This document shows positions 2,508-22,300 of a stretch of DNA of 64,000 bases, one piece after another. Made by a program: the position numbers and the translations under genes. Origin of the DNA: Cirrosporium novae-zelandiae (lineage: Eukaryota). The notes under the pieces are model-generated. The model did not search any database and was not told where the DNA came from. It was given only the letters and a program-made list of their open reading frames with translations. The stretch's first letter is position 1. Every line of letters begins with the position of its first letter. The stretch spans positions 868,001 through 932,000 of the forward strand of contig JAPETS010000005.1 of the NCBI GenBank assembly GCA_026023565.1, given 5' to 3'.

Positions 2508-3506
2508 GACGAGATGAAAAAAGCCTTATCGCAGATTATAATTAGTTGTAATGAATTGAGTTTCGTTTTGACGGGGTTTGAGTGTTGGAGAATTGTGGGG
2601 GGTAGACGAACAAGAGGTCGGAGGTGGTGGCTGGTGGAACCAAGCAAGGTTTGGCCCGAAGGATCCAATGGGATCTTATTCCTTGAGTCGAAATGTTCTA
2701 CGAAGTACAGTACATTGAAATAACGCTGCATACTTGAGTACTATCAGTCGAAGTTTAGTTGTTATCTAAACACTAAAAGTAGAAAGAGCCCTCATTAATG
2801 TAAATTAGATTGAATTGGTGTCTCGGCCAAAGGAATCACGAAGTTCTTGGACGATAAATTGGAAGTTTTCATGGATTAATTTAGTACGGGAGGGAGGGAA
2901 ACTTGGTTCTTTTGAAGAAGGGGGTAAGTAATTAAATGTGTTGAAAGATCCCTAACTTATACCAGAAAATTAATAAATCAGAGAGCACTTCACGAATGCA
3001 CTGAACACTGACCGTACTGGCTACCTACCTACTGTAGGTAGGGATACCCGTATGGACCTTCATGCTTTACAACTCACTCATTCTACTCCTAAGACACCTA
3101 TTGCCGGTTCAACACCTATTGAATATTCATACTCAAGATGGAAACGATGCGATAGGTTTCCAAAAATGGTATATATATTTGAATATGAATAATCGTTATC
3201 TCTATTATAGCTAAGCCAACTAATCGTTTTCAACTTATATTAAAATCTCTCATATTTATCATGAATAAAATTATAAAAAAAATATATAACTCTATCAATA
3301 GTGTCCTCAGTATATGGAGTTCACCAAGCTCACCAATAAGCCCATTGATTTGATACAGGGGTTGAACCACCAATCAACCCAAGAATGGAGACAGCTGAAT
3401 CAGGCCTGCATGAGCCTAAGAGAACCCCTCAGAATCACACTTGATTGAAACCAAGGTAAGGCTCCAAAGCACATAACGACTACAATCCAAAACCTCAAAA
3501 ATCAAA

Positions 3507-4130
3507 ATGGCCGACAAAATCAAGAACTACTTCCTAGCTCTAAGCTGGGATGACCCCCCAAACGGCCCCATAGGCTCTCGGAAATATCGTCCGGGCCCCA
3601 GACAAAACTGTGCCGCCTCTATCCGCACACACACACCCCGATTCCGACATACCCATAAACCTCTGCTCCTCAAAGACCGGGGTATACTGGTCCCCGGGCC
3701 AAGACCATCGAAGGGAGCTTCGGCGTGTGGGCGGAGTTCCTTCAATTGCTCGGAGTAGGCGTCGACATCGGAGTAGATTTTAAGGACACACTGATGACAG
3801 AATATACCAGTTCGAGCGCATGGATCCAGAAGAGTTCTTTCCGGATGAAGAGGCGATTCGGAAAAGAATGGCGAGCTCGGCTGTGAAGAATTCTATTGAG
3901 AAGAGTAGATTCAGAAAGGGGGTTTATATGATTGTGGGGATTAAGATGGTTGCCCGGGCCTAAGGTGAAGAGTATGGTGAAGTATATGACTGGGAGGAGG
4001 AGAGATGAGATGTCTTTTGAAGGGTCCACGGACTTTGTGTTTGCTTTTCGGTTGAGAAAGGTGAAGGGTCAATCAGAAAGGATGAGGTGAAATAGGATTG
4101 ACTATAGGAAAGATACTTTGCTTGGGGATC
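3507..4130 (+). pseudogene. Fungal gasdermin-like (HET-Q1/RCD-1 family) pore-forming cell-death protein, frameshifted
   Basis: Reading across frameshifts (~3573, ~3693, ~3790, ~3954) gives NYFLALSWDDPPNGPIALGNIVRAPDK...GSFGVWAEFLQLLGVGVDIGVDF...YQFERMDPEEFFPDEEAIRKRMASSAVKNSIEKSRFRKGVYMIVGIKMV...SFEGSTDFVFAFRLRKVK. The I.LG.(I/V), (Y/F)(M/V)(I/V).G(I/V) and FA(Y/F)R(L/V)R motifs match fungal gasdermins. Confidence 0.75.
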
Positions 4131-4261
4131 AGGGTAGACGAGGTCCCTATTTTTTCTGAGACGTTTACTAGGCTTGGGCTTAAGGGATCGAGGGAGATGC
4201 TTCAGCGGAGAATTTTGGGTTGGAGGAGGTGGTAGCCTCGAAGTCTTTTCTAACTGCGTAG

Positions 4262-4350
4262 CAGAGGGAAGGGAATGGGTCCAACCAGACTAAGCTTTTT
4301 CATAGACCGACCAGACCGTGGGCAATCAAGGCCTATTTGGTCTATCGCGT
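4262..4350 (+). mobile_element. Solo left end of hAT-type MITE
   Basis: CAGAGGGAAGGGAATGG...CCAGACTAAGCTTTTTCATAGACCGACCAGACC...CTATTTGGTCTAT is closely similar to the left end of the element at 8247. Confidence 0.65.
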
Positions 4351-4929
4351 ATATATCTATATAACTATATAGGTTACCTAAGGTATATTTAGAATACTTA
4401 AGATATTACTGGTAGAATTATAGATTAGATAGCAGATTAGATAAGGTCGCGTAACGGGGGGGGGGGGGATACGATAAGGAGTGATGATGATGACGATGAA
4501 TATAGGGGTTGAAAAAATCTTTTTGTCCGCATGTCGCCCCTTTTGGTCATGGCGGATGAGATGGACTCCTAAGGAAGGCCTTCCAGACGAAAAGAATTTT
4601 ATTTAAAGGCCTCAGAAACATTTTTTTTTCTTATGAGTTTCGCTTATTTTGGAACCCGAGTGCCAGTAGACTAACAACCACCTCGACCTCCCCCTTCCGA
4701 CTGAGATTAGAATCTTAGAATGAGATGTCTAGGCAAATTGTCAGTCCTGATTTCGGTAGCGAAGTCGATATTACATCTTCAAGCACTATATCTCCCCGCG
4801 ATCGATTTGCTACACTTCGGTTTGAGAAAGTTTCATGCGGTAAAATGATAAATCCAAAACCATCGGATGGATTCTCACAGAGTTAGAGCACGTTTACTTT
4901 GGCTAGGTTAACATAACCAAATGAATTAA

Positions 4930-5981
4930 TTAATTGTCCATGTAACAGTTAGCTAAAGCATACTTAATATCCTCTCGAATCTTGCTCGGTGGAAACCTAC
5001 GAAAGTACTGAAAAGGCGCAATCAAATCATACCCATCTCTCTGCCTGTTGCATTCTACAAACAACCGAAAAAGAGAGGTGATACCCTCGTACCTTTTAAG
5101 CTCGTCGGACGTATTCAAGTTTGGAATCTCTTGCTGTGCATATCCAATAATAAAAGCTGCCAAGGCAATGGCAACTGGGACTGCAAACGAAGTCCCTGTC
5201 ATACGTCTGCTCGCTCCTGCTACTCTAGCATCGGGCCAGCAAGATTTAATGTGCTGGCCTAGAATACTAAAGTTTTCATGGAGTCTTGTCGGGGATGGAT
5301 TACACTGCGATTTGTTGCCATTTGAATCGGTCGAATGTATGCAAATCACTCCATGCTGTGAAGCAGGAAAAGTCCTCGGCGAGTTCCCTCCGTCGTTTGA
5401 TGCTGCAGCGAAGACGATCTTGCCGTTATACACTACCTCTTTGATCTCGTCCCGAATCTGGGAGATTTCTTCTTGGAAACCGAAAGACATTGTAATCATG
5501 TCCACTTTCCAAGTCCTCTACGAATATTTAAACGCCTGTGTCCTGTAAGAATGTCTGAATAGCTTAGGATAGGATTCCACATTACATTTAAGATCTGCTC
5601 GATATCATCGAGCTCGCGGGTTTTAGTTACTCGAGCATTGTAGATATCTACATTTGGTGCCAGATCAAGGATGATTCCTGCTATGTGAGTTCCATGGCCC
5701 GAGAGGTCCCCGCCACGTTTTTCTTCCACAGCCTTATGGATCACTTCTGCTCCATTACCCGTCGCACCAGCGCTCTTTAGCTTTCCTAGATGCTTATACA
5801 ACAGTATTGTAGCAGTTTGGAAACTCGAGATAAGACTCCCAAAGCCTCCATCTGGTTTCTTGGTTTTCACTTTCAGGAGCTCGGTAAGTTTATGGGTGCT
5901 GGGAAGAATGGTGAGGAGGAGCTCCAGAGTTTCTTGGGTCCCTGAGAAGGATTGTGGCTTCGTGGTAGGTATATCTGCCAT
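4930..5981 (-). pseudogene. Subtilisin-like S8 serine protease (HET-Q2-like), degenerate
   Basis: Has GHGTHIAG (catalytic His), FAAASNDG (oxyanion Asn) and GTSFAVP (catalytic Ser). There is an intron at ~5536-5585 and an in-frame TAG at 5518-5520 (AFKYS*RTWKVDMITMSFG). No catalytic-Asp (xILDTG) motif is seen upstream. Confidence 0.8.
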
Positions 5982-6254
5982 GCAGGACTAACGGACTGCA
6001 ACGGTGATAGCAAAACCACGAGACGAAGTTCATCTATCTCAGCCTCACTTCGAAGGTAAAGGTAGCAAGCCGCAAGCTATCGGGATTAATGTTCAGCCTG
6101 ACTATCACACCTTAAAGGTGGGGCACAAAAGAGGAATATCCAATCAATATCCTCAGCTAGACCGCTCACCTAGCCTTCTGAATTACTAAAACGGTCGAGA
6201 AATTCATTTCATGTTGGACATCATAGCATTCAACCGCTTTTGAATATCTATCTG

Positions 6255-8202
6255 ATGGCAACAAACGGAGCCGGCCCTACGATAGCTGGTAAGGCAACTG
6301 GGTGTCGCGACTTCTCTTTTAACTGTCACGAGTTGCTTAGGGTGAGCAACAGTGCGCAATATTGGACGAGCCTGCTAGACCAACTCGGGCGATTTCAAAT
6401 CTGGTCTTCAAATATTGGTGTCTTTTCAGACCTTCGTGTATCACTAGATTATCGATTTAGAGATGTCTCAGATGTCCGAAATTTGATACTCCAGCTCCTC
6501 ACGAGTATTAATGATTGTCTTCGACAGTGTAAGCACCTATAGTCCATCATTGTGTATCCAGCTCACAGTACTTCAGTGAAAGAACACTGCCATATTGAAC
6601 CATTAGCCTCTTCTGACAAAGCTCAGGTAGCTTGTGATTTGGATATAGCAGCCGGCGGCTTCAAGTATTGACTGGCTTCATCGCCTATCAAATTCAACCT
6701 GTAAAGCCAGCTCCTTGGGTCAGAATGAACGAGCCAAAAAGGTTCTCCTTACTGATCCGGCTGATACATCGAAGGATCTTACGCCTGAATGGATATACTT
6801 GTATTCAGGAATGATAAAGAGAGAATTTCTAGCTCTCATTGAAAATCTTCGAACGCGCTTGGCCCACAGTATGGTGTTAAGGCGTAAAAGAATAATGTAC
6901 TGGCAGTCCAGATGCCAACGATGGAGAATTCACCAAGAGTTCTATCTCCAAAAAGCTCCGAAAAAAATACACGTACCTCGGATTGCTCCCAAGGCGAGCT
7001 TTGGTGGTCCCAAAAAGGCACAAGAGGTTAAACCTCTAGCACAACGTATATATGCTCCCTCACAACTCACCGCCACCATACTTCAGCCTAAGCGACTGAA
7101 GAAAACAAAAACCCAATCCACAGTTTCATCCGCTCTCACAACGCCCTTGAAGAATCAAGATAAGACTATCATCCCCCCCCCCCCGCCGTATACCGCAAGA
7201 ACAGGAAAGGACTTTGTGTGTGACTCTGTTGTATCATACTTAAGTGTGTTGAGGATTTGAATGCGCATAAATGGCCGTGAGTTTGTTCGAAGAGCTCCCT
7301 TGAACAGCTGCCAAAATCCATAGAGACAACATGTGTAGAAAGATCTTGATCTATACGTCTGTTTATTGGATCCCTGCGATACTTCTCTAGAGCCGTACTC
7401 CCAAGCAAGGAATAGCTCGAACACATGCGAACGGAGCATGCCATAAGGTGGGACTGTGGTGCACGAGACCATGATCCCTCGGTCTTTTTCTCGCAGGAAG
7501 AATTCAAAACCCATATGCAAACTAACCACCCGGGGATATTTGAGGACGAGATTCTAGATTATATTGCGGCAAGCAGTGTTCGTCCTCTGGAGAACGTGTT
7601 CAATGAAGACGGCCCTTTTTGTGGCGAGCCACCGATGAATGTGACTATGCACATTGGTGACCATCTAAAATACCTAGCTTTCTATACACTCCCGTCTTTT
7701 GAGGAAAACAATAACAACGCAGACCAAAAAAGTTTTTCAATATAGCAACAGCTTTTTAAACGAATCTCGTGGCACTATTAAACGACCAGTGTTTTCTGTT
7801 GACGAACTCCTTTGGGATCATTCAGACTTTCCGGAAATTACATATAGTGCAGAAGCACTTACATTTGACCCATCAGTGCCGGACGAAGAAGTGCCAGAAA
7901 TATATCTTCAGCTTCCCGGTAATAGATTGGGAAATTGGTGGGGCATTCTTGCCACTGATCAGAAGCATAAACGACTAGATATGAACGACACAGCCTACGA
8001 TAAGATCATCTCCTTTCTTTATAACGTCGGTGCTCGGTATTCTCACCTTCAGCAACCTAGCGGCTTTCCATCAGCTGGGTACTGGTTCTTTTTGATAATA
8101 AAGGTAATTTCATACCTATATCGTTTCGTAAAACAAGATGATGGATTAACCAAAGCTAGAGGCGCGAAATATATTGACCAGGTCGGTTCAGGGAAGAATT
8201 GA
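6255..8202 (+). pseudogene. Degenerate fungal protein with N-terminal helical domain (RFxIWxxNIG...SLDYRF) and C2H2-type Zn fingers
   Basis: Pieces in different frames: LGRFQIWSSNIGVFSDLRVSLDYRFRD; LRTRLAHSMVLRRKRIMY; IIPPPP..GKDFVC; HMRTEHAIRWDC; FKTHMQTNH; PFCG..HIGDHLKYLAFYTLP. Several frameshifts; the 3' end is cut by a MITE. Confidence 0.65.
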
Positions 8203-12380: not shown

Positions 12381-14357
12381 TCAAGATCTTCCAAATCCAA
12401 ACCATCCCCTTTTCTGCGCTGGTTTTTGCTCATCCTTCTTATCTTCTGCTGGGTTTGCTTCCTCCAAACCATTCTTACCCCTCCCTGGATAATCAATATA
12501 GGTCCATGCCACATCAAAGAATAATGGCTTGACCGGAATAGGTGTAAGTTTTGGCGGCCAAGTCACCAGATTGGCTGGATCGACTTTCCCATCGGATGGG
12601 TATTCTTGTAGAGAATTAACCAATGGAGATTGCATTACCGTATTATTGGCCTGCTTGTTCGAAGGTTTTGCAGCAAGGGAGGAGATTTCAACGAGCGCAT
12701 GATGTTTGCAAACGAGGTCTTGGAGCAATTGATTTAGGAAAGAGGCATGAGAGTGCGTCACCTCGAGCTTTGGAGGTGAATCAGCTCCCATGGGAGAGGA
12801 TTGGAGGGACGAGAGGCAGGTTTTTGAGAGATCAGAAGCATGAGCGAAAAGTGCAAGAGCATTTTTCTCGTTCAAGGAGATGAGATGAGAGCGGCCGATA
12901 GCTAGGCATCTACAAACTGGACGTAAGCACATTACCCAACACCACAAAATTCCAATTCAACATACCTTTGGGCTTGAAAATAAGCACGCTTGCCATCCAG
13001 TTCTGTCACGAAGGCAGTGTCGGCTGCTACACCTGGCAACTCTTTTACATCATCTATACTTTGGATAATGCCGTTATATAACACAAGCCGTTCGCGCAAT
13101 CTTGCCAATTTCTTCCCCTTTGCTTCTTCTTTCTCTGCCGGTGGGTTTCCGTCTTTTCGTACCTTTCGTTGTTTCCGATTTGTCTCATGCTCAAGTAGGG
13201 CTCCATCGTTGCTCCCACACAGAATGCGATTACGCCCAACTCTCCACTCTATCATGGCATAATTCACAGCTGTTCTGGTAACTTGCAAAGACTGCATCCT
13301 CTGATCCTCTGAAGCGACACCTTCGGCGGCAAGTTCATCGATTGCAGATTTTGTAGCATCTGCAGCATCTTGGCTGCAACCTATGACATTATCATAGGCC
13401 GCTGCTTTTTCTTGAAGGGAAAGCTCTTGAGATTGAGCCTCTTGTAGAAAATGAGATAATTGCGCTTCCGCTGCTGAAACAGATGCAAGACATTGCGCAA
13501 TGGATGCATCTTCAATGTTTACAGTTCGAGATCTCCATGAAATGGTTTTCAGTGCATCGCCTTGTTCGCTGGCCCCTTTCTTCACCCCTCCTGCTTCATT
13601 GTTCAAAGCATCCTGATCGAACTCTTTAATCGCCTCAACAAGCTGTGAGTCGGTGGTGGGAAAGAATTTCTGGGCAATTGTAGGAATCGCCAAGGTTCGT
13701 GGTAATCCATGTTGATAAGCTGCGTATCGTATGCTTGGCTCCACAGTATTGGAGAGTAAATTATTTGCAGAATCATTTTTGATAGCAATAGCAAGCACAG
13801 AATATATGACCCTTGCAGTTGAATAATGCTTAAGGCACTTCTCCCAGCTTTTTTTCTCAAAATCTACCGCACCCCAAAGAGAGGACGCATATGCTTGTGC
13901 TTCAAGGTAACCCGCATTAGCTGCTTGAGAGGAGTCCAGTTCTTTCACAAGGACGCATAGTTGTTCTGCATACAAAGCAGCTTGATGAAGTTTGGAGATT
14001 ATATGTGTCCTCGTGGATCCAGTAATGGAGGATGTTTCCGTTGAATGTGTAGACTTCATGTGCATGGCAAATGCCCAGGCACGTTCAGACTGAAGTAGGA
14101 GCAGGTGGGCATACCTAGATTTGGTAAGTCATGCTATTGCTGAGAAAAGGGTCCCAAGAAGCCTACTCATGATTGCGCGAGACATCTTCAGAGGTTATTG
14201 GTTCCTTGGGCGTGTACTTTCGGCCTTTTGGAGTTGTACAACCAAGCTTCCTGCGAACTTTGAGTAGGCGGCGGGACAATTGCTGGTGATAGGAATTATA
14301 GTCTCCTAGGAGTAATGCACTTTCTCTGTGCCCTGCGACGAAGGTTGTAATATCCAT
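12381..14357 (-). CDS. SRP68: Signal recognition particle subunit SRP68 (3 exons)
   Basis: MDITTFV..LLLGDYNSYHQQLSRRLLKVRRKLG; LLQSERAWAFAMHMKS; VEPSIRYAAYQ; C-terminal PIPVKPLFFDVAWTYIDYP...KRGWFGFGR. Confidence 0.93.
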
Positions 14358-14878
14358 TGTAGACTTTGATGGTACAAGGATTGTTTTGCTGCGGGCCAAC
14401 TTTCTGTAAGTTATTATCTTGGTTTGTGGGGCAGCGAATATTTCAGCCTGAGGCATCGATGACTATACCCTTTGAGTTTCCGTTGGCCGACAGTAGGACC
14501 AATTTTTAGCTTAAGCATGTACTATACACTCTAATATAATGTCCTCACCTTCTTCTTTCCACACTCACCTCTCCACTCCTTAACGGTGCCATCGGATGGC
14601 AAAAAGACGTCGCCTCTCCTATCTGAGATAATTTCCTTCGAATTTTTTAAACGTGAGAGGGTGGTGCGGGTATTCAACCCTCGGCTATACTGGACATCCC
14701 GAACAACCTTGCCAAACTTCTTTTATGACTGAAGAGTTATCCGTTATCTCCTATATCTAATTTCCGTCATTATAATACTTCCCGCCAAATTTAGGAGATA
14801 GAAGAGGGCTATAACATACTCGATGCGTATTGTCATACTACTGCAGACTTGAGAGGTCAAAGAAAGCTGTACAAGGGC

Positions 14879-17800
14879 ATGCTAGAGCGAGCAGCAGGGC
14901 ACCTGGAAAATGGAGCTCGATGCTGCATGCGCATCCCGAGAGGGTCAGCACGCAGTCGTGGGGCACTCCAACCCCATTTCTGGTATAATGGAGCAGATGG
15001 TGTTGATCTCCCGACTTGGTGGAAATTCTTGTGGCGGCAGCAAAATATTCAATCAGATAAACCCCGAAGAATACCGAAGAGACGCCCACATCAGACCCAA
15101 GGGTGTCCTTCAGACAATCTCGTCTTTCTTGATTTCCTCTATCCCAAACAGGCTTTAGCTGTATTTGAGCGTGTCTCTATAGCAGCTTTAGAACGACCTC
15201 CGCCCGATGTAATTAGAAAACAGAGTGGGCACAAGCACAGGAACTATAGTTCATACGCTCCTGATAACGTCAGGGACTCTAAAGACCGACAAAACTCAAG
15301 CCCTGAAAATCAGTCTTCTAATACCACTGCGGATGACCAGCTACAACCGCTCAGAGAACCCAATCCGGGACACGGGACAACGCATAAGGACATTGTTTCA
15401 TCATTTTCAGACCATGGTCTTGCTAATTCTAACCCTTCAATGTCAACTTCAGATGAGCCGTATGCTCCATCTGATAGGAGTATCCATGTTTTGCCTGAGT
15501 CTCCTGACGATGAGGTGGAAAATCCAGAAGTCAAGCACTACCTTAGCCCAAAAGTCGCGTTTACTCTATTACAAGAGCGTTTAGGCTCCTCCAAACACAA
15601 AGATGAATATGAAGAAATATGGCAACTCTTCTCCCATGCCCAAACCCTGGTTGATGATATAGCTAAGGATAAGGTCATCAAGTATCTGAGCCGCTCCGCA
15701 CGGTCGGTGGATGCTCAACGATCTATCAATATTTTCAAATCCATGTCACGTCCTTTAGATGGAGAGTTTTGGGACGACTCCTCTATTTCTATTTTGTATA
15801 GACATGCTATCACAGCATGCATCCGGATCGATGATAGTGCTTCGGCATTCGCATTTGACAAAGAATTCCGAACCCTTACTGGGAAGGACTCTCAACAGTC
15901 TTTTGCAACAGATTTATTACTACCCTATGCTATTCAGCGAGAAGATTGGACTGCTGCCCAGGCCGTATATCGACTCTACCTTACTGACGATCAATGGAAT
16001 AAGATTCTAAGCGCTAAATACCCTATACATACAATACAAAAATTAGCTGACTATGTTTCCAACGAGCTTTCCAACGAGCTTTCCAACGAGCTCTCGTCAG
16101 CCGTTAAAGATTATGCTTTCTTTAGGAGCTTCGTGCTGAAGTATGCGAGGTTCTTGCAGAAGTCATCTTTAATCACATCTTTCACTGAAGACGAGATCAA
16201 ACGCCTACTCCAAGTTTATGACAAATTAGTCGGAAATGATAGGAAGTCGGCTGTATATCGGTACCGGATAATGTCAGAACTCATGGAACATGGTAAAGGC
16301 TGGATAGCACAGCGCTTGTACCTAGCTCATCGAGGGGAAGAAGTAAAAAAGCCAAAATCAGAACCAACAATGCCGCTTCTAGGGGCTTTGTTAAGTCACT
16401 TCATATCGAAAAAGAATACGAGATGCATTAATTTCGTTCTGGAAGACTTTACCAAATTTCACAAGCATCCAGATGTACAAGCCTATACTGCTGCTCTTGG
16501 TTATTTTTCCCGCATTGGCGACGTGGAAGGAGTTAAACGGGTTTTTGAAGACTATCGCTCGCATCTCGGTGACCCGACTGAATTACATATTATATCGCCG
16601 TTGTTATATGTTTATAACAGAAGAGGCGATGTCGCTAATACCATCAAAGAATTTAACAGAATCTCTTCCGAATTCCATCTAGTCCCTAATATCGTTTGCT
16701 GGAATATTGTCCTTGGGGTTTATGCTAGAGTGGAAGATATTCGTAGTGCATATGAATGCTTCCAAAAGATGAGGGAAGCAGACATCGATCCTGATTCCTA
16801 CACTATTAGCACTCTTGCATACCTTTGTGCCGGCAGGGGGGACGTGGAAGGCGTACAGGAGTTATTGGATATCGCTAAACAAAAGGCCATCCCATCAAAT
16901 TCACATTTTGTTAATGCTCTTGTCCGAGCGCTTTGTGAAGTTGGAGACCCCGAAACGGCCGAACAGGTTGCAAGTGCCACCTTGGACGAAGCAAAGCCTT
17001 ATGAGAAAACTATGATATGGAATACTATTCTTTATTCTTATACTCTTAGGAATGATGGTTATGGATTTGAGCGAGTCCAACGAAATATGCGTGAGAATGG
17101 GGTATTGTTTGATAACGTGACTTATGCTTCGGTCTTACAGATGTTAGTCAACCAAAGGAATGTAGATATGGCTTACAGGGTCCTCCGAAAAGACATGCCA
17201 AAAGATAAAGTGCCTGTCACCGGCCATCATTACGCCATAATCATGTCAGGGCTCCTGATGAGAGACAATCCTCCCCTTGTTTTTTATGCCTACAAGCGCA
17301 TGTTGCGACGATCGATTTTACCAAGTTTCGAAACCAAGATGGCTTTACTTGGGGCTGCGGCAGCATATGAACATCAAAGACATCCCCTCCATGGTTTGAA
17401 GCAAACAGAAAAAATTCTAGAAGATTTCCTATCGCAACTGAATCCTGCCGAGGCGATCCAGGAGATGCCACGACGAACAGTCGGTGGAGTGCCCCCAAAC
17501 CAAGGCTATCCCGCCATGCTGTTTCAGCCTTTAATATTCGCCCATGCGAAACTGAGGCATTTCGGCAAAGTCATGGCCCTCCTCAATCGGTCCATCGAGG
17601 TAACCCGTCAACACTCTCCTGGTGAACCTATGCAACCTCTTCAACTTATCACCAGTGTTATGGCAGTTCTTTTCAACGAGAAACTATTCAAAGAATTATT
17701 CCTGTGTTGGGAAATAGTCCTTAAAGCGGCCAAAGATTCAATTCTCACCTGGAGTGATATATCTGCTCTTCAAAACTCCGACGAGGTTGATATTAATAGC

Positions 17801-18307
17801 CCAGCTGCACTCTCCCATCGCTATATTCTTTCTACAGCATTCAACTACGTCCTACTCTCTTGCGGCGCAAAGGGTCGTTATACCAATATCGCCCATGAAA
17901 TAGCGCGTCTCAAACGCAATGGGTTTGACCTTGACAATCGCAATTGGAACGTTTACATCGAAGTCCTATCCAAGTCTGCGTCGCTCCAACACAAAATGCG
18001 CGCCTTTGAACTTTGTGAATCGAAATTGGTCTCCAACTGGGCTGGATGGCGCAAGCCTCCAGGAAAGCGTATAACAAAACATATTGAGAAGAGCATGACG
18101 GATCTACAGCCTTGGAGACTGGCACCTACCTACCGAACGATGGTGAAACTGGCAAGTGTCCTCATGAATCTTAGGGTTGAAGGACACGATGACGATGGAG
18201 AAGTAATGTTATGGCTAAGACAACATGCATGGAGGACAATGATGGCTGTTATGGCGATGCCGAGGGTCGATGATGCATATCAGAGTAAATGGTTGAGCCA
18301 GTGGTAG
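14879..18307 (+). CDS. cya5: Mitochondrial PPR protein, COX1 translation factor CYA5/PET309-like
   Basis: Single 1142-aa exon with N-terminal MLERAAGHLE and FLDFLYP motifs, tandem PPR motifs (PNIVCWNIVLGVYARVED, PDSYTISTLAYLCAGRGD) and a C-terminal P.YRTMVKLA motif. Confidence 0.85.
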   Translation: MLERAAGHLENGARCCMRIPRGSARSRGALQPHFWYNGADGVDLPTWWKFLWRQQNIQSDKPRRIPKRRPHQTQGCPSDNLVFLDFLYPKQALAVFERVSIAALERPPPDVIRKQSGHKHRNYSSYAPDNVRDSKDRQNSSPENQSSNTTADDQLQPLREPNPGHGTTHKDIVSSFSDHGLANSNPSMSTSDEPYAPSDRSIHVLPESPDDEVENPEVKHYLSPKVAFTLLQERLGSSKHKDEYEEIWQLFSHAQTLVDDIAKDKVIKYLSRSARSVDAQRSINIFKSMSRPLDGEFWDDSSISILYRHAITACIRIDDSASAFAFDKEFRTLTGKDSQQSFATDLLLPYAIQREDWTAAQAVYRLYLTDDQWNKILSAKYPIHTIQKLADYVSNELSNELSNELSSAVKDYAFFRSFVLKYARFLQKSSLITSFTEDEIKRLLQVYDKLVGNDRKSAVYRYRIMSELMEHGKGWIAQRLYLAHRGEEVKKPKSEPTMPLLGALLSHFISKKNTRCINFVLEDFTKFHKHPDVQAYTAALGYFSRIGDVEGVKRVFEDYRSHLGDPTELHIISPLLYVYNRRGDVANTIKEFNRISSEFHLVPNIVCWNIVLGVYARVEDIRSAYECFQKMREADIDPDSYTISTLAYLCAGRGDVEGVQELLDIAKQKAIPSNSHFVNALVRALCEVGDPETAEQVASATLDEAKPYEKTMIWNTILYSYTLRNDGYGFERVQRNMRENGVLFDNVTYASVLQMLVNQRNVDMAYRVLRKDMPKDKVPVTGHHYAIIMSGLLMRDNPPLVFYAYKRMLRRSILPSFETKMALLGAAAAYEHQRHPLHGLKQTEKILEDFLSQLNPAEAIQEMPRRTVGGVPPNQGYPAMLFQPLIFAHAKLRHFGKVMALLNRSIEVTRQHSPGEPMQPLQLITSVMAVLFNEKLFKELFLCWEIVLKAAKDSILTWSDISALQNSDEVDINSPAALSHRYILSTAFNYVLLSCGAKGRYTNIAHEIARLKRNGFDLDNRNWNVYIEVLSKSASLQHKMRAFELCESKLVSNWAGWRKPPGKRITKHIEKSMTDLQPWRLAPTYRTMVKLASVLMNLRVEGHDDDGEVMLWLRQHAWRTMMAVMAMPRVDDAYQSKWLSQW
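16058..16093 (+). repeat. 12-bp coding tandem repeat (SNEL x3)
   Basis: TCCAACGAGCTT repeated three times in frame. Confidence 0.85.
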
Positions 18308-19359
18308 TCCTGAAGTGTTAGCTAGACTAAAATCTAAGTACCCTTTCCACTCTTACCATCTGTGATGATGGCGAGATGGCGAACTTGCGGTCGTTATTCA
18401 TACAAGGGATAGACTGGTTGGTGAGGTGGTTTTGTATTGTGGTCTTCCTCCCTAATAGTAGATACCCTGTATGATAACTGCAGGATATACGCTGTACTCC
18501 CACAACGACGTAACATATACGCACCATGTATGTATGTATTAGTTTGCCCTAACGTCTTCCTTATTTGGAATAGCATGGACGCCTTATCTAATAGGATATT
18601 AAATGCCTCAGGCATCACATCTACTCTCTTCTCCAATCCTTGAGATAATTGTCAACCACAAACTAAATCTCCCAACTCCCAAGCATCTGCAACTTCATTT
18701 TGTTTCAAACCTCCAGTCACAGCTGGAATTTTTCCGAATCAACTTCCGGGCGGGCACATATTCCAGCCAGCTTCACTTTGTCACAATGCAACATTAATTC
18801 GGATATATCTCATTCGCCAAGCGCAACTCCAAACTCGTTCTAGACTACAGTGGTTGAAATTTCCCCGAAGTTCCCCAACCCCGGATTTAGTAAAAGGACC
18901 AAGGCTCCCCAGTTTTATCTGGATGGAAAGATGCTTAACCTATTAAGTACTTGTGGCCTCTCATGTACCTACGTACTCCCACATCTATCTCCGCACAATG
19001 GCACCGGATTATTTATTCCGTGCCAACACTGCCAGTTACACATGCGAAGTCTCAAATCATGGCATTGGAAAGACCCATTACTACGTATCTATTTGGCTTG
19101 TTCGCAATTCAGCCCCAGGTAACTGCACCACCGGGATCACATTCAACTTGGAGATGCCCACAGGTACTCTACAGGCCATTGCATCCTTGCTTCAACGTGC
19201 TCCGACTTAATTATTTTCCCGATTTCCCCATAATTTGATCCATCCATCTGACCGTCTTACTTTTTTGAGGAGTTATGGAAACCTTTAAATACTTAGTAGG
19301 TGCTTCTCGGATTCTAAGAGCACTTCGATGGGAAATTCCTTCAAGAGCTTTCTGGGAAA

Positions 19360-22300
19360 ATGGCGTTAATCCGGAACGTCGTCCTCCAGGCTTTGCTTTT
19401 TACTTTAACTTGTTTGATTTCTAGCCAAGGAGCACTTTCTGAAAGTGATTCTGTTTCTCAATGGCCTCTGCATGACAATGGGTTGAACGAAGTTGTCCAA
19501 TGGGATCATTATAGCTTGGAAGTCAATGGAAAGAGGATCTTCATTTTCGCGGGCGAATTTCATTATTGGAGAGTCCCTGTGCCAGAACTATGGGAGGATA
19601 TCCTACAAAAAATAAAAGCTGCAGGGTGCAACGCATTCACATTCTATGCGCATTGGGGCTACCATCACCCAAACCCAGATACTCTTGACTTCAGCAATGG
19701 AGCTCATGATTTTACTAAGCTGTTCACAATTGCCAAGAAATTAGGACTATATGTTATCGTTAGGCCCGGCCCATATATAAATGCGGAAGCAAATGCTGGT
19801 GGGTATCCACTTTGGTTGACAACCGGCGACTACGGGACTCTTCGAAACAACGACACTCGATATACGGCAGCCTGGAAACCATACTTTGCCAAGGTCTCCG
19901 AAATCACGAGCAACTATCTGATCACGAATGGTGAGAATGCCATTGCCTACCAAATTGAAAATGAATACGGTAAACAATGGCTTTCTACATCAAAGAAGAC
20001 ACTCAACGAGTCTGCAAATGCCTATATGACGATGCTCGAAGAAATTGCTAGAGAAAATGGTATTGATATTCCACTGACTCACAATGACCCGAACATGAAT
20101 TCAAAGTCATGGTCAAAAGACTTTTCAAACTCGACAGGTAATGTTGATATTGCAGGACTCGATTCATATCCATCAGTAAGCCCTCGTCACCATATACAAA
20201 GCATCATTTGCTGATTGATAGATAGTGTTGGAGTTGCAATCTTGATGAATGCACAAGTACAAATGGCGAATATATGGCTTATAAGGTGGTGGCTTATTAT
20301 GACCACTTCCAAGAAGTGTCTCCCACCCAGCCTGAGTTCATGTTCGAGTTCCAAGGAGGCTCATATAATCCTTGGGGCGGACCTGAGGGTGGATGTCCAG
20401 AGGACACAGGTGCTGAATTTGCAAACCTCTTCTACAGACATAATGTTGCTCAGAGGATCACTGCTATGAACCTTTATATGTTCTACGGAGGAACCTCTTG
20501 GGGGTCATTTGCTGCACCCGTCGTGGGCACATCCTACGATTATTCGTCACCGATTTCCGAGGATCGGTCGATTGGTGACAAGTACTACGAAACAAAGAAT
20601 CTTGCGTTGTTCCTTCGAACTGCTCGAGATCTCACGATAGCGGATGTAGGGCAGAACAGTACGAATATGTCAACCAATTCTGCAATTCTTACAACTGAGC
20701 TTCGTAACCCTGATACTGATGCTGGGTTCTATGTCACCATTCATAGCAACTCTTCGTCATCTACCACAGATACCTTTAAGCTCACTGTCAACACTACTGC
20801 TGGAGAATTGACAGTACCCCAAAAGAGTGGCCACATCGTACTCGATGGACATCAATCTAAGATTATTGTGACAGATTTCACATTCGGCTCCCATAGTCTC
20901 CTATACTCCACGGCCGAAGTTCTTTCCTCCTCTATTACAGACAATAGCACTTCCATATTAGCTTTATGGGTCCCTACAAGCGAATCCGGGGAGTTCTTTA
21001 TAAAAGACACTAGTTCCGGAACTGTTGCAAAATGTGATGGCTGCTCAAATATTGGTTTCCACAAGGAAACTGGTGGCCTCCTGGTAACTTTTACGCAAAC
21101 GAAAGGCATGAGCATTCTATCTATAGACAGTGGCTCCATTCTAGTCATTCTTCTCGACAGAACATACGCGTATAAGTTCTGGGCCCCGGTCTTGACACTG
21201 GATCCTTTCGCTCCTGAGGATGAAATAAGTAAGCTACATTAACACACTTAGCCTAACTACTGACTAATATATCACCCAGTCCTCGTTCAAGGCCCCTACC
21301 TCGTCCGTGACGCCTCAATCAGTGGAAACACCATTGCCCTAACAGGTGACTCATCCAACACAACCGCAGTCACTGTCTTCGCCCCATCAAACGTCGGCTC
21401 AATCTCTTGGAACGGGAAGCTCCTCTCAACGAAAAGGACAGGCTATGGAGCCCTCATAGCAACTATTCCCGCCATCTCCACTACCTCCATCAATCTCCCC
21501 GCCCTCGACAACTGGAAAGCCCATGACAGCCTTCCAGAACGGCTGGAAACCTATGACGACTCTGGTCCTGCCTGGGTCGATGCAAATCACACCTCAACCC
21601 TCAACCCCGCGAAACCAGCCACATACCCTGTCCTCTACGCCGACGAATACGGCTTCCACAACGGGATCCACCTATGGCGCGGCAAGTTCAGCGGTCCTGC
21701 AAGCGGAGTATTCCTCAACGTCCAAGGCGGCACAGCCTTCGGATGGAGCGCCTGGCTCAATGGCATTTTCATCGGCTCCTTCCTTGGCTCCTCCTCCCTC
21801 ACAGCGGGCAATGCAACCCTCTCATTCGGAAACGCAACCGTATATACCAACACCACGAACACCCTCCTCGTAATCCAAGACAACACCGGCCACGACGAAA
21901 CAACAGGTGCCCTAAACCCCCGCGGCGTCCTTAACGCAACTCTCCTTTCCCCATCCTCCAAAAATATAACTTTCTCCTCCTGGAAAGTTGCCGGCACCGC
22001 CGGTGGTTCCACCTCCACCCTCCTAGACCCCATGCGCGGCGCCCTCGCCGAAGGCGGCCTCACCGCCGAACGGCTCGGCTGGCATCTCCCAGATTTCACC
22101 CCCAGCACAAACACAAACTGGACCACCTCTTCCCCAACCACCGGCTTCACGGAACCCGGCATCCGCTTCTACCGCACCACCTTCAACCTCTCCCTCCCCG
22201 CAACCGTAGACACATCCCTCGCATTCCGCCTCAGCGCCCCGGGAGCCCAGACTCTGCGGGCACAACTCTTCGTTAACGGATACCAGTACGGTCGGTTCAA

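Follow-up and report, generated by a model that had tools for sequence, protein, structure and literature searches.

In Podospora anserina, the subtilisin-like S8 protease HET-Q2 activates the gasdermin HET-Q1 by removing a C-terminal piece of ~5 kDa (PMC8851545). The same survey counts a protease gene at a distance of no more than 10 kb for 80% of 1,884 fungal gasdermin genes (S8, 63%; CHAT, 19%), reports a long N- or C-terminal extension in 93% of 1,601 HET-Q2-like proteins, and describes bacterial gasdermins as genomically paired with proteases (PMC8851545). Here we describe a locus at positions 3507-5981 of a 64,000-nt stretch of Cirrosporium novae-zelandiae DNA (GenBank assembly GCA_026023565.1, contig JAPETS010000005.1, positions 868,001 to 932,000 of the forward strand), which is hereafter called the window and to which all coordinates refer. 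The locus consists of a gasdermin-like gene and an S8 protease gene and is very likely a dead remnant of a two-gene cell-death module of the het-Q1/het-Q2-like type. It is a case of ordinary gene loss, notable only in that the gasdermin is far more broken than the protease.

The gasdermin-like pseudogene, of the HET-Q1/RCD-1 family, occupies 3507-4261 (+), from a conserved ATG to the TAG of its last frame, as delimited by homology to the proteins P0001 and P0155-P0158. Pieces of one protein are scattered over all three frames of this region, and the four motifs quoted in the initial annotation could all be located there in shifting frames (GPI|ALGNIV, FGVWAEFLQLLGVGVDIG, KGVYMIVGIK and STDFVFAFRLRK). 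A fragment of 59 amino acids (aa) in a single frame, 3784-3960, matches P0001, an intact 281-aa "hypothetical protein" that was the sole protein at E ≤ 0.01 among five candidates, with an E value of 1.2e-18 and 76% identity, and the gasdermin signal is therefore not due to chance. Dynamic programming that allows for frameshifts gave 187 identities to P0001 over 241 aligned residues, from the start methionine to the tail, and revealed nine frame-breaking insertions between 3573 and 4186, seven of them +1 (at 3573, 3694, 3955, 4064, 4074, 4090, and 4133) and two +2 (at 3785-3786 and 4185-4186). All nine were still scored as insertions when the alignment permitted 1- or 2-base deletions. Most of them, as read from the sequence, double a base within a run of 2-4 nt, and three of the +1 insertions (4064, 4074, and 4090) lie inside 27 nt. 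When P0155-P0158, which are intact and 75-52% identical to P0001, were used as the reference, 8-10 breaks were obtained at essentially the same sites. The initial annotation had thus recognized a gene broken by frameshifts, but its count of about four was too low. The first open frame from the ATG encodes only 22 gasdermin residues, and the nine breaks leave no uninterrupted frame of ~250-300 codons.

The pseudogene also lacks the residues corresponding to 154-181 of P0001, a deletion of 28 aa (84 nt) whose junction, GPKVKS|MVKYMT, lies at 3956-3991 and was placed by the P0001 alignment together with the secondary structure of a P0001 model. Hairpin 2 of that model is composed of strands 150-168 and 182-195 with a helix at 170-173, and through the deletion the hairpin loses its tip and the greater part of one arm, which bears out the earlier remark that the second membrane-inserting hairpin is short. 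The pore fold with two hairpins is therefore present in the model of intact P0001 and incomplete in the window copy. At the C-terminus, the window copy is 12 aa shorter than P0001; the region VDEVP..ETFT.LGL..DASAE.FGLE, a predicted inhibitory tail, is present but frameshifted and affected by this shortening. Substitutions are found at near-invariant residues as well, namely P12L and T105P. No second gasdermin copy was detected in the window by tblastn with P0001.

The assignment to gasdermins, which had been proposed from short motifs, holds when it is traced through the intact relatives. No Pfam family was matched by six fragments of the window gasdermin or by P0001, even at an E value of 10, and Pfam has no model that recognizes this gasdermin clade. 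By phmmer, in turn, P0001 matches RCD-1-1 (8jyz_A) with an E value of 5e-5 and RCD-1-2 with 5e-4. An exhaustive HMMER search gave 1195 cluster representatives at E ≤ 0.001, mostly of 250-300 aa, and a profile built from 72 of them (A1) was compared with the PDB, where it matched RCD-1-1 (E 3.5e-26), RCD-1-2 (E 8e-26), the HET-Q1 pore 9uv9 (E 2e-20), and bacterial gasdermins (E 7.5e-5). The chain from the window fragment through P0001 to RCD-1 and HET-Q1 thus connects the pseudogene with experimentally characterized gasdermins. P0001 was modelled with AlphaFold2 from A1, at a mean predicted local distance difference test score (pLDDT) of 82.7, and the gasdermin-fold comparison suggested in the initial annotation was performed with this intact protein. 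The best Foldseek match in the PDB was the RCD-1 pore, with an E value of ~1e-12 and a template modelling (TM) score of 0.71 normalized by the target, and it was followed by bacterial gasdermin pores and then by those of Trichoplax, GSDMD, GSDME, GSDMA3, and GSDMB. One member of the family, P0030 (1308 aa), carries its gasdermin-like region at 1015-1263 behind Zn2Cys6, PHD, Myb, and C2H2 domains, which points to either a fused gene or two genes merged in one model.

Nine insertions in one short gene could in principle be consensus errors, with the gasdermin being intact in the organism, and the location of most of them within homopolymers of 2-4 nt is what such errors would look like. A Logan contig of the public run X1, however, spans 3300-6100 in one piece with no differing letter and no gap, reproducing all 2801 bases at a mean word depth of 354 in an independent k-mer assembly, and this exact re-assembly indicates that the gasdermin breaks are not assembly errors. 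The comparison was made with contigs of this run, which is possibly the source run; runs X2 and X3 of the same study gave no coverage of the stretch. The artefact would nevertheless require nine errors in one gene of 750 nt that spared the S8 gene, the SRP68 gene, and a PPR frame of 3.5 kb in the same window, and the 84-nt deletion, P12L, and T105P are not types of change that such errors produce. The identity with the X1 contig and the open frames of SRP68 and PPR therefore argue that the breaks are locus-specific and present in the DNA, and we regard a sequencing artefact as very improbable. It is more improbable still, to a degree that makes it hardly credible, that the gasdermin continues to be expressed through programmed +1/+2 ribosomal frameshifting. 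All nine breaks are extra bases, the frame obtained by reading through them has no stop codon, and the sequence at one site allows a reading of AAA-TAG with a +1 shift after it; these features would fit such a mechanism, but no motif is common to the nine sites, most of the zero-frame continuations meet neither a stop nor a rare codon over a long distance, and the read-through product should not form a pore because one arm of hairpin 2 is deleted. Frameshifting at many sites of one gene is also not known from the nuclear genomes of filamentous fungi.

The S8 remnant lies at 4930-5981 (-), tail to tail with the gasdermin pseudogene, as had been noted initially, and the two convergent genes are separated by a gap of 668 nt. 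It is distributed over two open reading frames (ORFs), of which that at 4930-5517 (-, 195 aa) matches the Peptidase_S8 family PF00082 with an E value of 6.8e-7 and 29.3 bits, above the cut-off of 21.8, and that at 5496-5987 (-, 163 aa) matches it with an E value of 0.01 and 15.6 bits, under the Pfam cut-off. PDB subtilisins match the remnant at 3e-6, and the presence of a Peptidase S8 domain is thus established. The closest homolog, one of 4 proteins at E ≤ 1e-5 out of 911 candidates, is P0002 from Arthroderma sp. PD_2, a protein of 933 aa with a DUF7580 domain (PF24476) at 251-513 and the S8 domain at 652-863. Considered as a frameshift, the change of frame between the two S8 ORFs was rejected, since a 50-nt GT..AG intron (GTAATG...CACAG, 5536-5585) is found there at a position conserved in the family: the same split with a frame change, around residues 733-738 of P0002, occurs in all ten S8-bearing metagenomic loci (L005 included). 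The gene model therefore comprises exon 1 at 5586-5981 (132 codons, with its ATG at 5981), recognized by homology to P0002 and MAFFT alignments, and exon 2 at 4930-5535, including the stop codon at 4930-4932, which carries the Pfam match and is 57% identical to residues 738-930 of P0002.

By tblastn, the window S8 aligns only to residues 691-930 of P0002, from the His box to the end, with 55-57% identity. Weaker similarity, visible in the MAFFT alignments, reaches as far as a "DIP" motif near residue 617, and the ATG at 5981 falls exactly there. Residues 1-615 of P0002, including DUF7580, have no match anywhere in the window at E values up to 50. A long regulatory extension, which in this clade contains DUF7580, is thus lacking, and the remnant is a protease domain only, from which ~615 N-terminal residues including DUF7580 are gone.

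Of the catalytic boxes, the remnant keeps those of His (HGTH, codon 5694-5696), Asn (AAASNDGGN), and Ser (GTSFAVP, codon 5188-5190), while the Asp box at ~5817-5870 is degenerate and reads KVKTKKPDGGFG. The intact box, [VI]K[VI]A[ILV]LD[ST]G[ILF]D, is present in P0002, P0003, and P0005 and in every one of the eight distinct loci that extend over this region. Where exactly the catalytic Asp should be placed in the window depends on the alignment. By tblastn and in one MAFFT run, the Asp column is occupied by Ile (LISSFQ), while in a MAFFT alignment of 13 sequences KTKKPDGGFG lies at the Asp box with its Asp one column off and TKKP in place of the VA[IL]L strand. In either alignment, Thr-Lys-Lys-Pro stands in place of the buried hydrophobic strand that precedes the Asp box, and the other two frames of 5700-6300 (-) contain no D[ST]G box. 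The second lesion is an in-frame TAG at 5518-5520 (-), codon 6 of the canonical exon 2, where the window reads AFKYS*RTWKVD, P0002 reads ALDYAIHVWKVD, and the homologs follow the pattern A[LI]..A...W.VD. As read from the sequence, the TAG is avoided only with a third-choice 3' splice site at 5518, and in the canonical splice form the S8 gene therefore has no uninterrupted frame after splicing. From the His box onwards, 56 columns reach at least 80% conservation among 12 intact S8 homologs. The window differs at 10 of them, mostly by conservative replacements, while the intact homologs differ at 3.4 on average and at no more than 8; before the His box, the window mismatches at four of eight conserved columns. 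These mismatches at conserved columns are the kind expected of relaxed constraint, under which the window S8 appears to stand. In view of the degenerate Asp box, the TAG, and the truncation, the window protease is most likely dead as well.

The pairing of the two genes is not peculiar to the window. Among named homologs, the one closest to the gasdermin is P0158 (FQN49_000276, 277 aa) from Arthroderma sp. PD_2, and both it and P0002 (FQN49_000275) are reported on a contig of 50,014 nt; from their consecutive locus tags we infer that the two genes are adjacent. In metagenomes, a scan with P0001 alone found no loci, and a scan with a seven-sequence alignment (A2) found 14 gasdermin-homolog loci. 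Thirteen of these were examined by a Pfam scan of ORFs of at least 125 aa, with L005 being left out as a near-duplicate of L004. An S8 gene follows the gasdermin directly on the opposite strand in nine of the 13 (L002, L003, L004, L006, L008, L011, L012, L013, and L014), with spacers of ~135-475 nt as measured from match ends to S8 ORF ends. DUF7580 is encoded upstream in the same gene in seven of these nine loci, and the other two end before that point. The remaining four loci are without S8: L001 has only 56 nt downstream, L007 has no family match, L010 has a 752-aa ORF without a family match, and L009 makes the fourth. The linkage of the homologs to proteases, on which the initial annotation had drawn from general knowledge, is thus borne out by the Arthroderma tags and the metagenomic loci, and together with the convergent S8 gene 668 nt from the window gasdermin, it agrees with the published gasdermin-protease survey (PMC8851545).

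Some further observations were made on these relatives. In L009, what follows the gasdermin homolog is not S8 but an ORF (1899-2408, +) encoding a HET (heterokaryon incompatibility) domain. A gasdermin homolog (P0171) and a DUF7580-S8 protein (P0003) of Ilyonectria sp. MPI-CAGE-AT-0026 are both reported on a contig of 1,488,612 nt and are possibly another linked pair. As for DUF7580, of which no mention was found in the literature searched, its consensus resembles, in our reading, a degenerate kinase catalytic loop with subdomain IX. A model of this domain (from L012:6039-8078, -) had a pLDDT of only 49.5 and no Foldseek match at E ≤ 0.001; the 47 weak matches listed for it, with E values of 0.007-0.05, are almost all to protein kinases or pseudokinases and are only a lead.

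From the relatives, the intact form of the module would be a gasdermin of ~280 aa convergent with a protein of ~930 aa composed of a helical N-terminus, DUF7580, and S8. By analogy with HET-Q1/HET-Q2, the protease of the intact ancestor would have been restrained by its N-terminal part and then activated, whereupon it would have cut the short inhibitory tail from the C-terminus of the gasdermin. The trimmed gasdermin would then have inserted two β-hairpins into the membrane and oligomerized, and the resulting pore would have killed the cell. In the window, the gasdermin is untranslatable and has lost a hairpin arm, and the protease is a damaged catalytic domain; the module thus cannot fire here.

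Both partners have decayed, as had been proposed, and they have done so unevenly. The gasdermin has nine frame breaks, and the S8 gene is truncated and has a degenerate Asp box and one TAG but no frameshifts; in other words, nine frame breaks and two larger deletions in ~750 nt of gasdermin compare with none in ~1,000 nt of S8. If the indels had fallen at random over both genes, the chance that all nine would lie in the gasdermin is, by our own arithmetic, (750/1750)^9, or roughly 5e-4. This unevenness suggests that the gasdermin was probably inactivated first, while the protease domain probably remained under constraint for longer. The insertion-only spectrum (9 of 9), with three insertions within 27 nt, may reflect clustered error-prone repair rather than slow neutral decay, or else a mutational spectrum biased towards insertions. 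Decay that differs between the partners and breaks that are insertions only are the two puzzling features of the locus.

One possible explanation of the unevenness is that the locus is, or recently was, a haplotype of the het-Q2 type. A rearrangement would have stripped the helical region and DUF7580 from the S8 protein, leaving a constitutively active, protease-only S8; the adjacent gasdermin would then have become lethal and been knocked out, and the S8 gene would have served as an allorecognition allele against gasdermin-bearing strains, although it may itself be decaying now. The homology to P0002 begins at the ATG of the ORF and the protease domain alone was kept, and the gasdermin has nine breaks in ~250 codons while the S8 gene has none in ~330; a protease-only remnant that starts with an ATG at the domain boundary and lies beside a more decayed gasdermin is what the model of het-Q2 origin predicts for the protease-bearing haplotype. 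The same origin has been proposed for het-Q2 itself (PMC8851545 and PMC10197012), and an engineered protease-only form, Q2L-6, was reported to activate its gasdermin (PMC8851545). The part of PMC10197012 at hand gives a model and describes no pseudogenised gasdermin locus. However, polar residues and Pro have taken the place of the strand ahead of the Asp box, a TAG interrupts the canonical exon 2, the S8 gene exceeds the intact homologs in mismatches (10 against a maximum of 8 among 12), and the same asymmetry would arise if the gasdermin had died first for any other reason. A het-Q2-type haplotype is therefore unlikely, though it deserves some weight, because the protease itself now looks dead. 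If this explanation were true, the locus would be a natural snapshot of an allorecognition idiomorph of the het-Q type being born, the complementary haplotype with the gasdermin would be expected in other strains or in sister species, and C. novae-zelandiae would possess, or once have possessed, an independently arisen incompatibility locus of the het-Q kind.

The reading of the locus as the dead remnant of a two-gene module has to be weighed against several observations that speak against it. The S8 gene has no frameshift over ~330 codons, its ATG lies exactly at the domain boundary, and use of the distal 3' splice site would give an open S8 frame of 327 codons. In our reading of the alignment, no gap is needed to bring the Asp of PDGG into line with the catalytic Asp, and the D35A mutant of HET-Q2 is reported to keep partial activity in Podospora (PMC8851545); taken together, these two points make some residual protease function possible. 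The gasdermin, when read through its breaks, has no stop codon. At 33 strongly conserved gasdermin columns, the window has four substitutions and four deleted positions, which is within the range of intact members at the same columns (mean 3.6, maximum 10). With its substitutions inside the intact range and no stop codon, the gasdermin looks young in terms of substitution-level decay despite its nine indels. The agreement with run X1, finally, is one of contigs and not of single reads, and X1 may be the source sample of the window.

The window has the character of DNA from a filamentous ascomycete: its G+C content is ~44%, its introns are short, and the closest named homologs of both genes belong to Pezizomycotina. 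The spacer between the gene tails (4262-4929, 668 nt) contains a run of 11 G at ~4463-4473. Two stretches of it, 4281-4317 and 4384-4426, recur on several other contigs of run X1 and occur once each within the window, which marks them as dispersed repeats of small size; a 32-nt pattern taken from 4302-4333 likewise has a single occurrence in the window. A repeat search of 3000-6600 yielded one 14-nt pair only and thus no repeats that would account for the truncation or the deletion. A divergent neighbour at 6247-8202 (+) begins ~265 nt from the ATG of S8, in the place expected for the DUF7580 part; it is spread over several ORFs and has no Pfam match. An Atlas feature search with 7416-7745 returned hypothetical proteins of Ascomycota, some of them with zf-C2H2_AcuF, at scores of 0.90-0.94, which is a lead only. 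Farther away are SRP68 at 12381-14128 (-), in two ORFs apparently parted by an intron of ~45 nt, a PPR-repeat protein of 1170 aa in one open frame at 14795-18307 (+), and a GH35 β-galactosidase fragment at 19318-20214 (+), all three being ordinary housekeeping neighbours.

The locus adds a documented pseudogenised case to the gasdermin-protease clusters of the het-Q1/het-Q2-like type and shows that the protease partner in this clade typically carries DUF7580. Surveys of such clusters are built on annotated genes, and the word "pseudogene" does not occur in PMC8851545. Relics like this one escape gene callers that rely on open frames, which biases the numbers obtained for fungal cell-death modules and for their turnover. 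A published model, itself experimentally unproven, in which the rearrangement of a cluster gives rise to an allorecognition system is matched by both the uneven decay and the protease-only remnant, and C. novae-zelandiae could be a place to seek complementary haplotypes.

Among the known systems, HET-Q1/HET-Q2 of P. anserina is alike in its gasdermin of ~280 aa with a short C-terminal tail and in the S8 protease paired with it, and HET-Q2, like the window remnant, is a protease domain only without an extension. The Podospora genes are, however, idiomorphic alleles that are both functional, whereas those in the window are adjacent, convergent, and both damaged. The closest named homologs are found in the Arthroderma sp. 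PD_2 pair, with 57% identity over 194 aa for S8 and 117 of 247 identical residues for the gasdermin; this pair is apparently intact, and its protease keeps the N-terminal region and DUF7580 that have been lost from the window copy. RCD-1-1/RCD-1-2 of Neurospora crassa (8jyz, 8jyx, and 8jyy) are the best match of the window family in both sequence and fold, but according to PMC8851545, RCD-1 is not linked to S8 and becomes active when antagonistic allelic variants interact, with no protease. Bacterial gasdermin-protease operons (8sl0, 7n51, and 9a84) share the gasdermin fold with the window family, while their similarity in sequence is distant (E 7.5e-5), their role is prokaryotic anti-phage defence, and their proteases have a different architecture.

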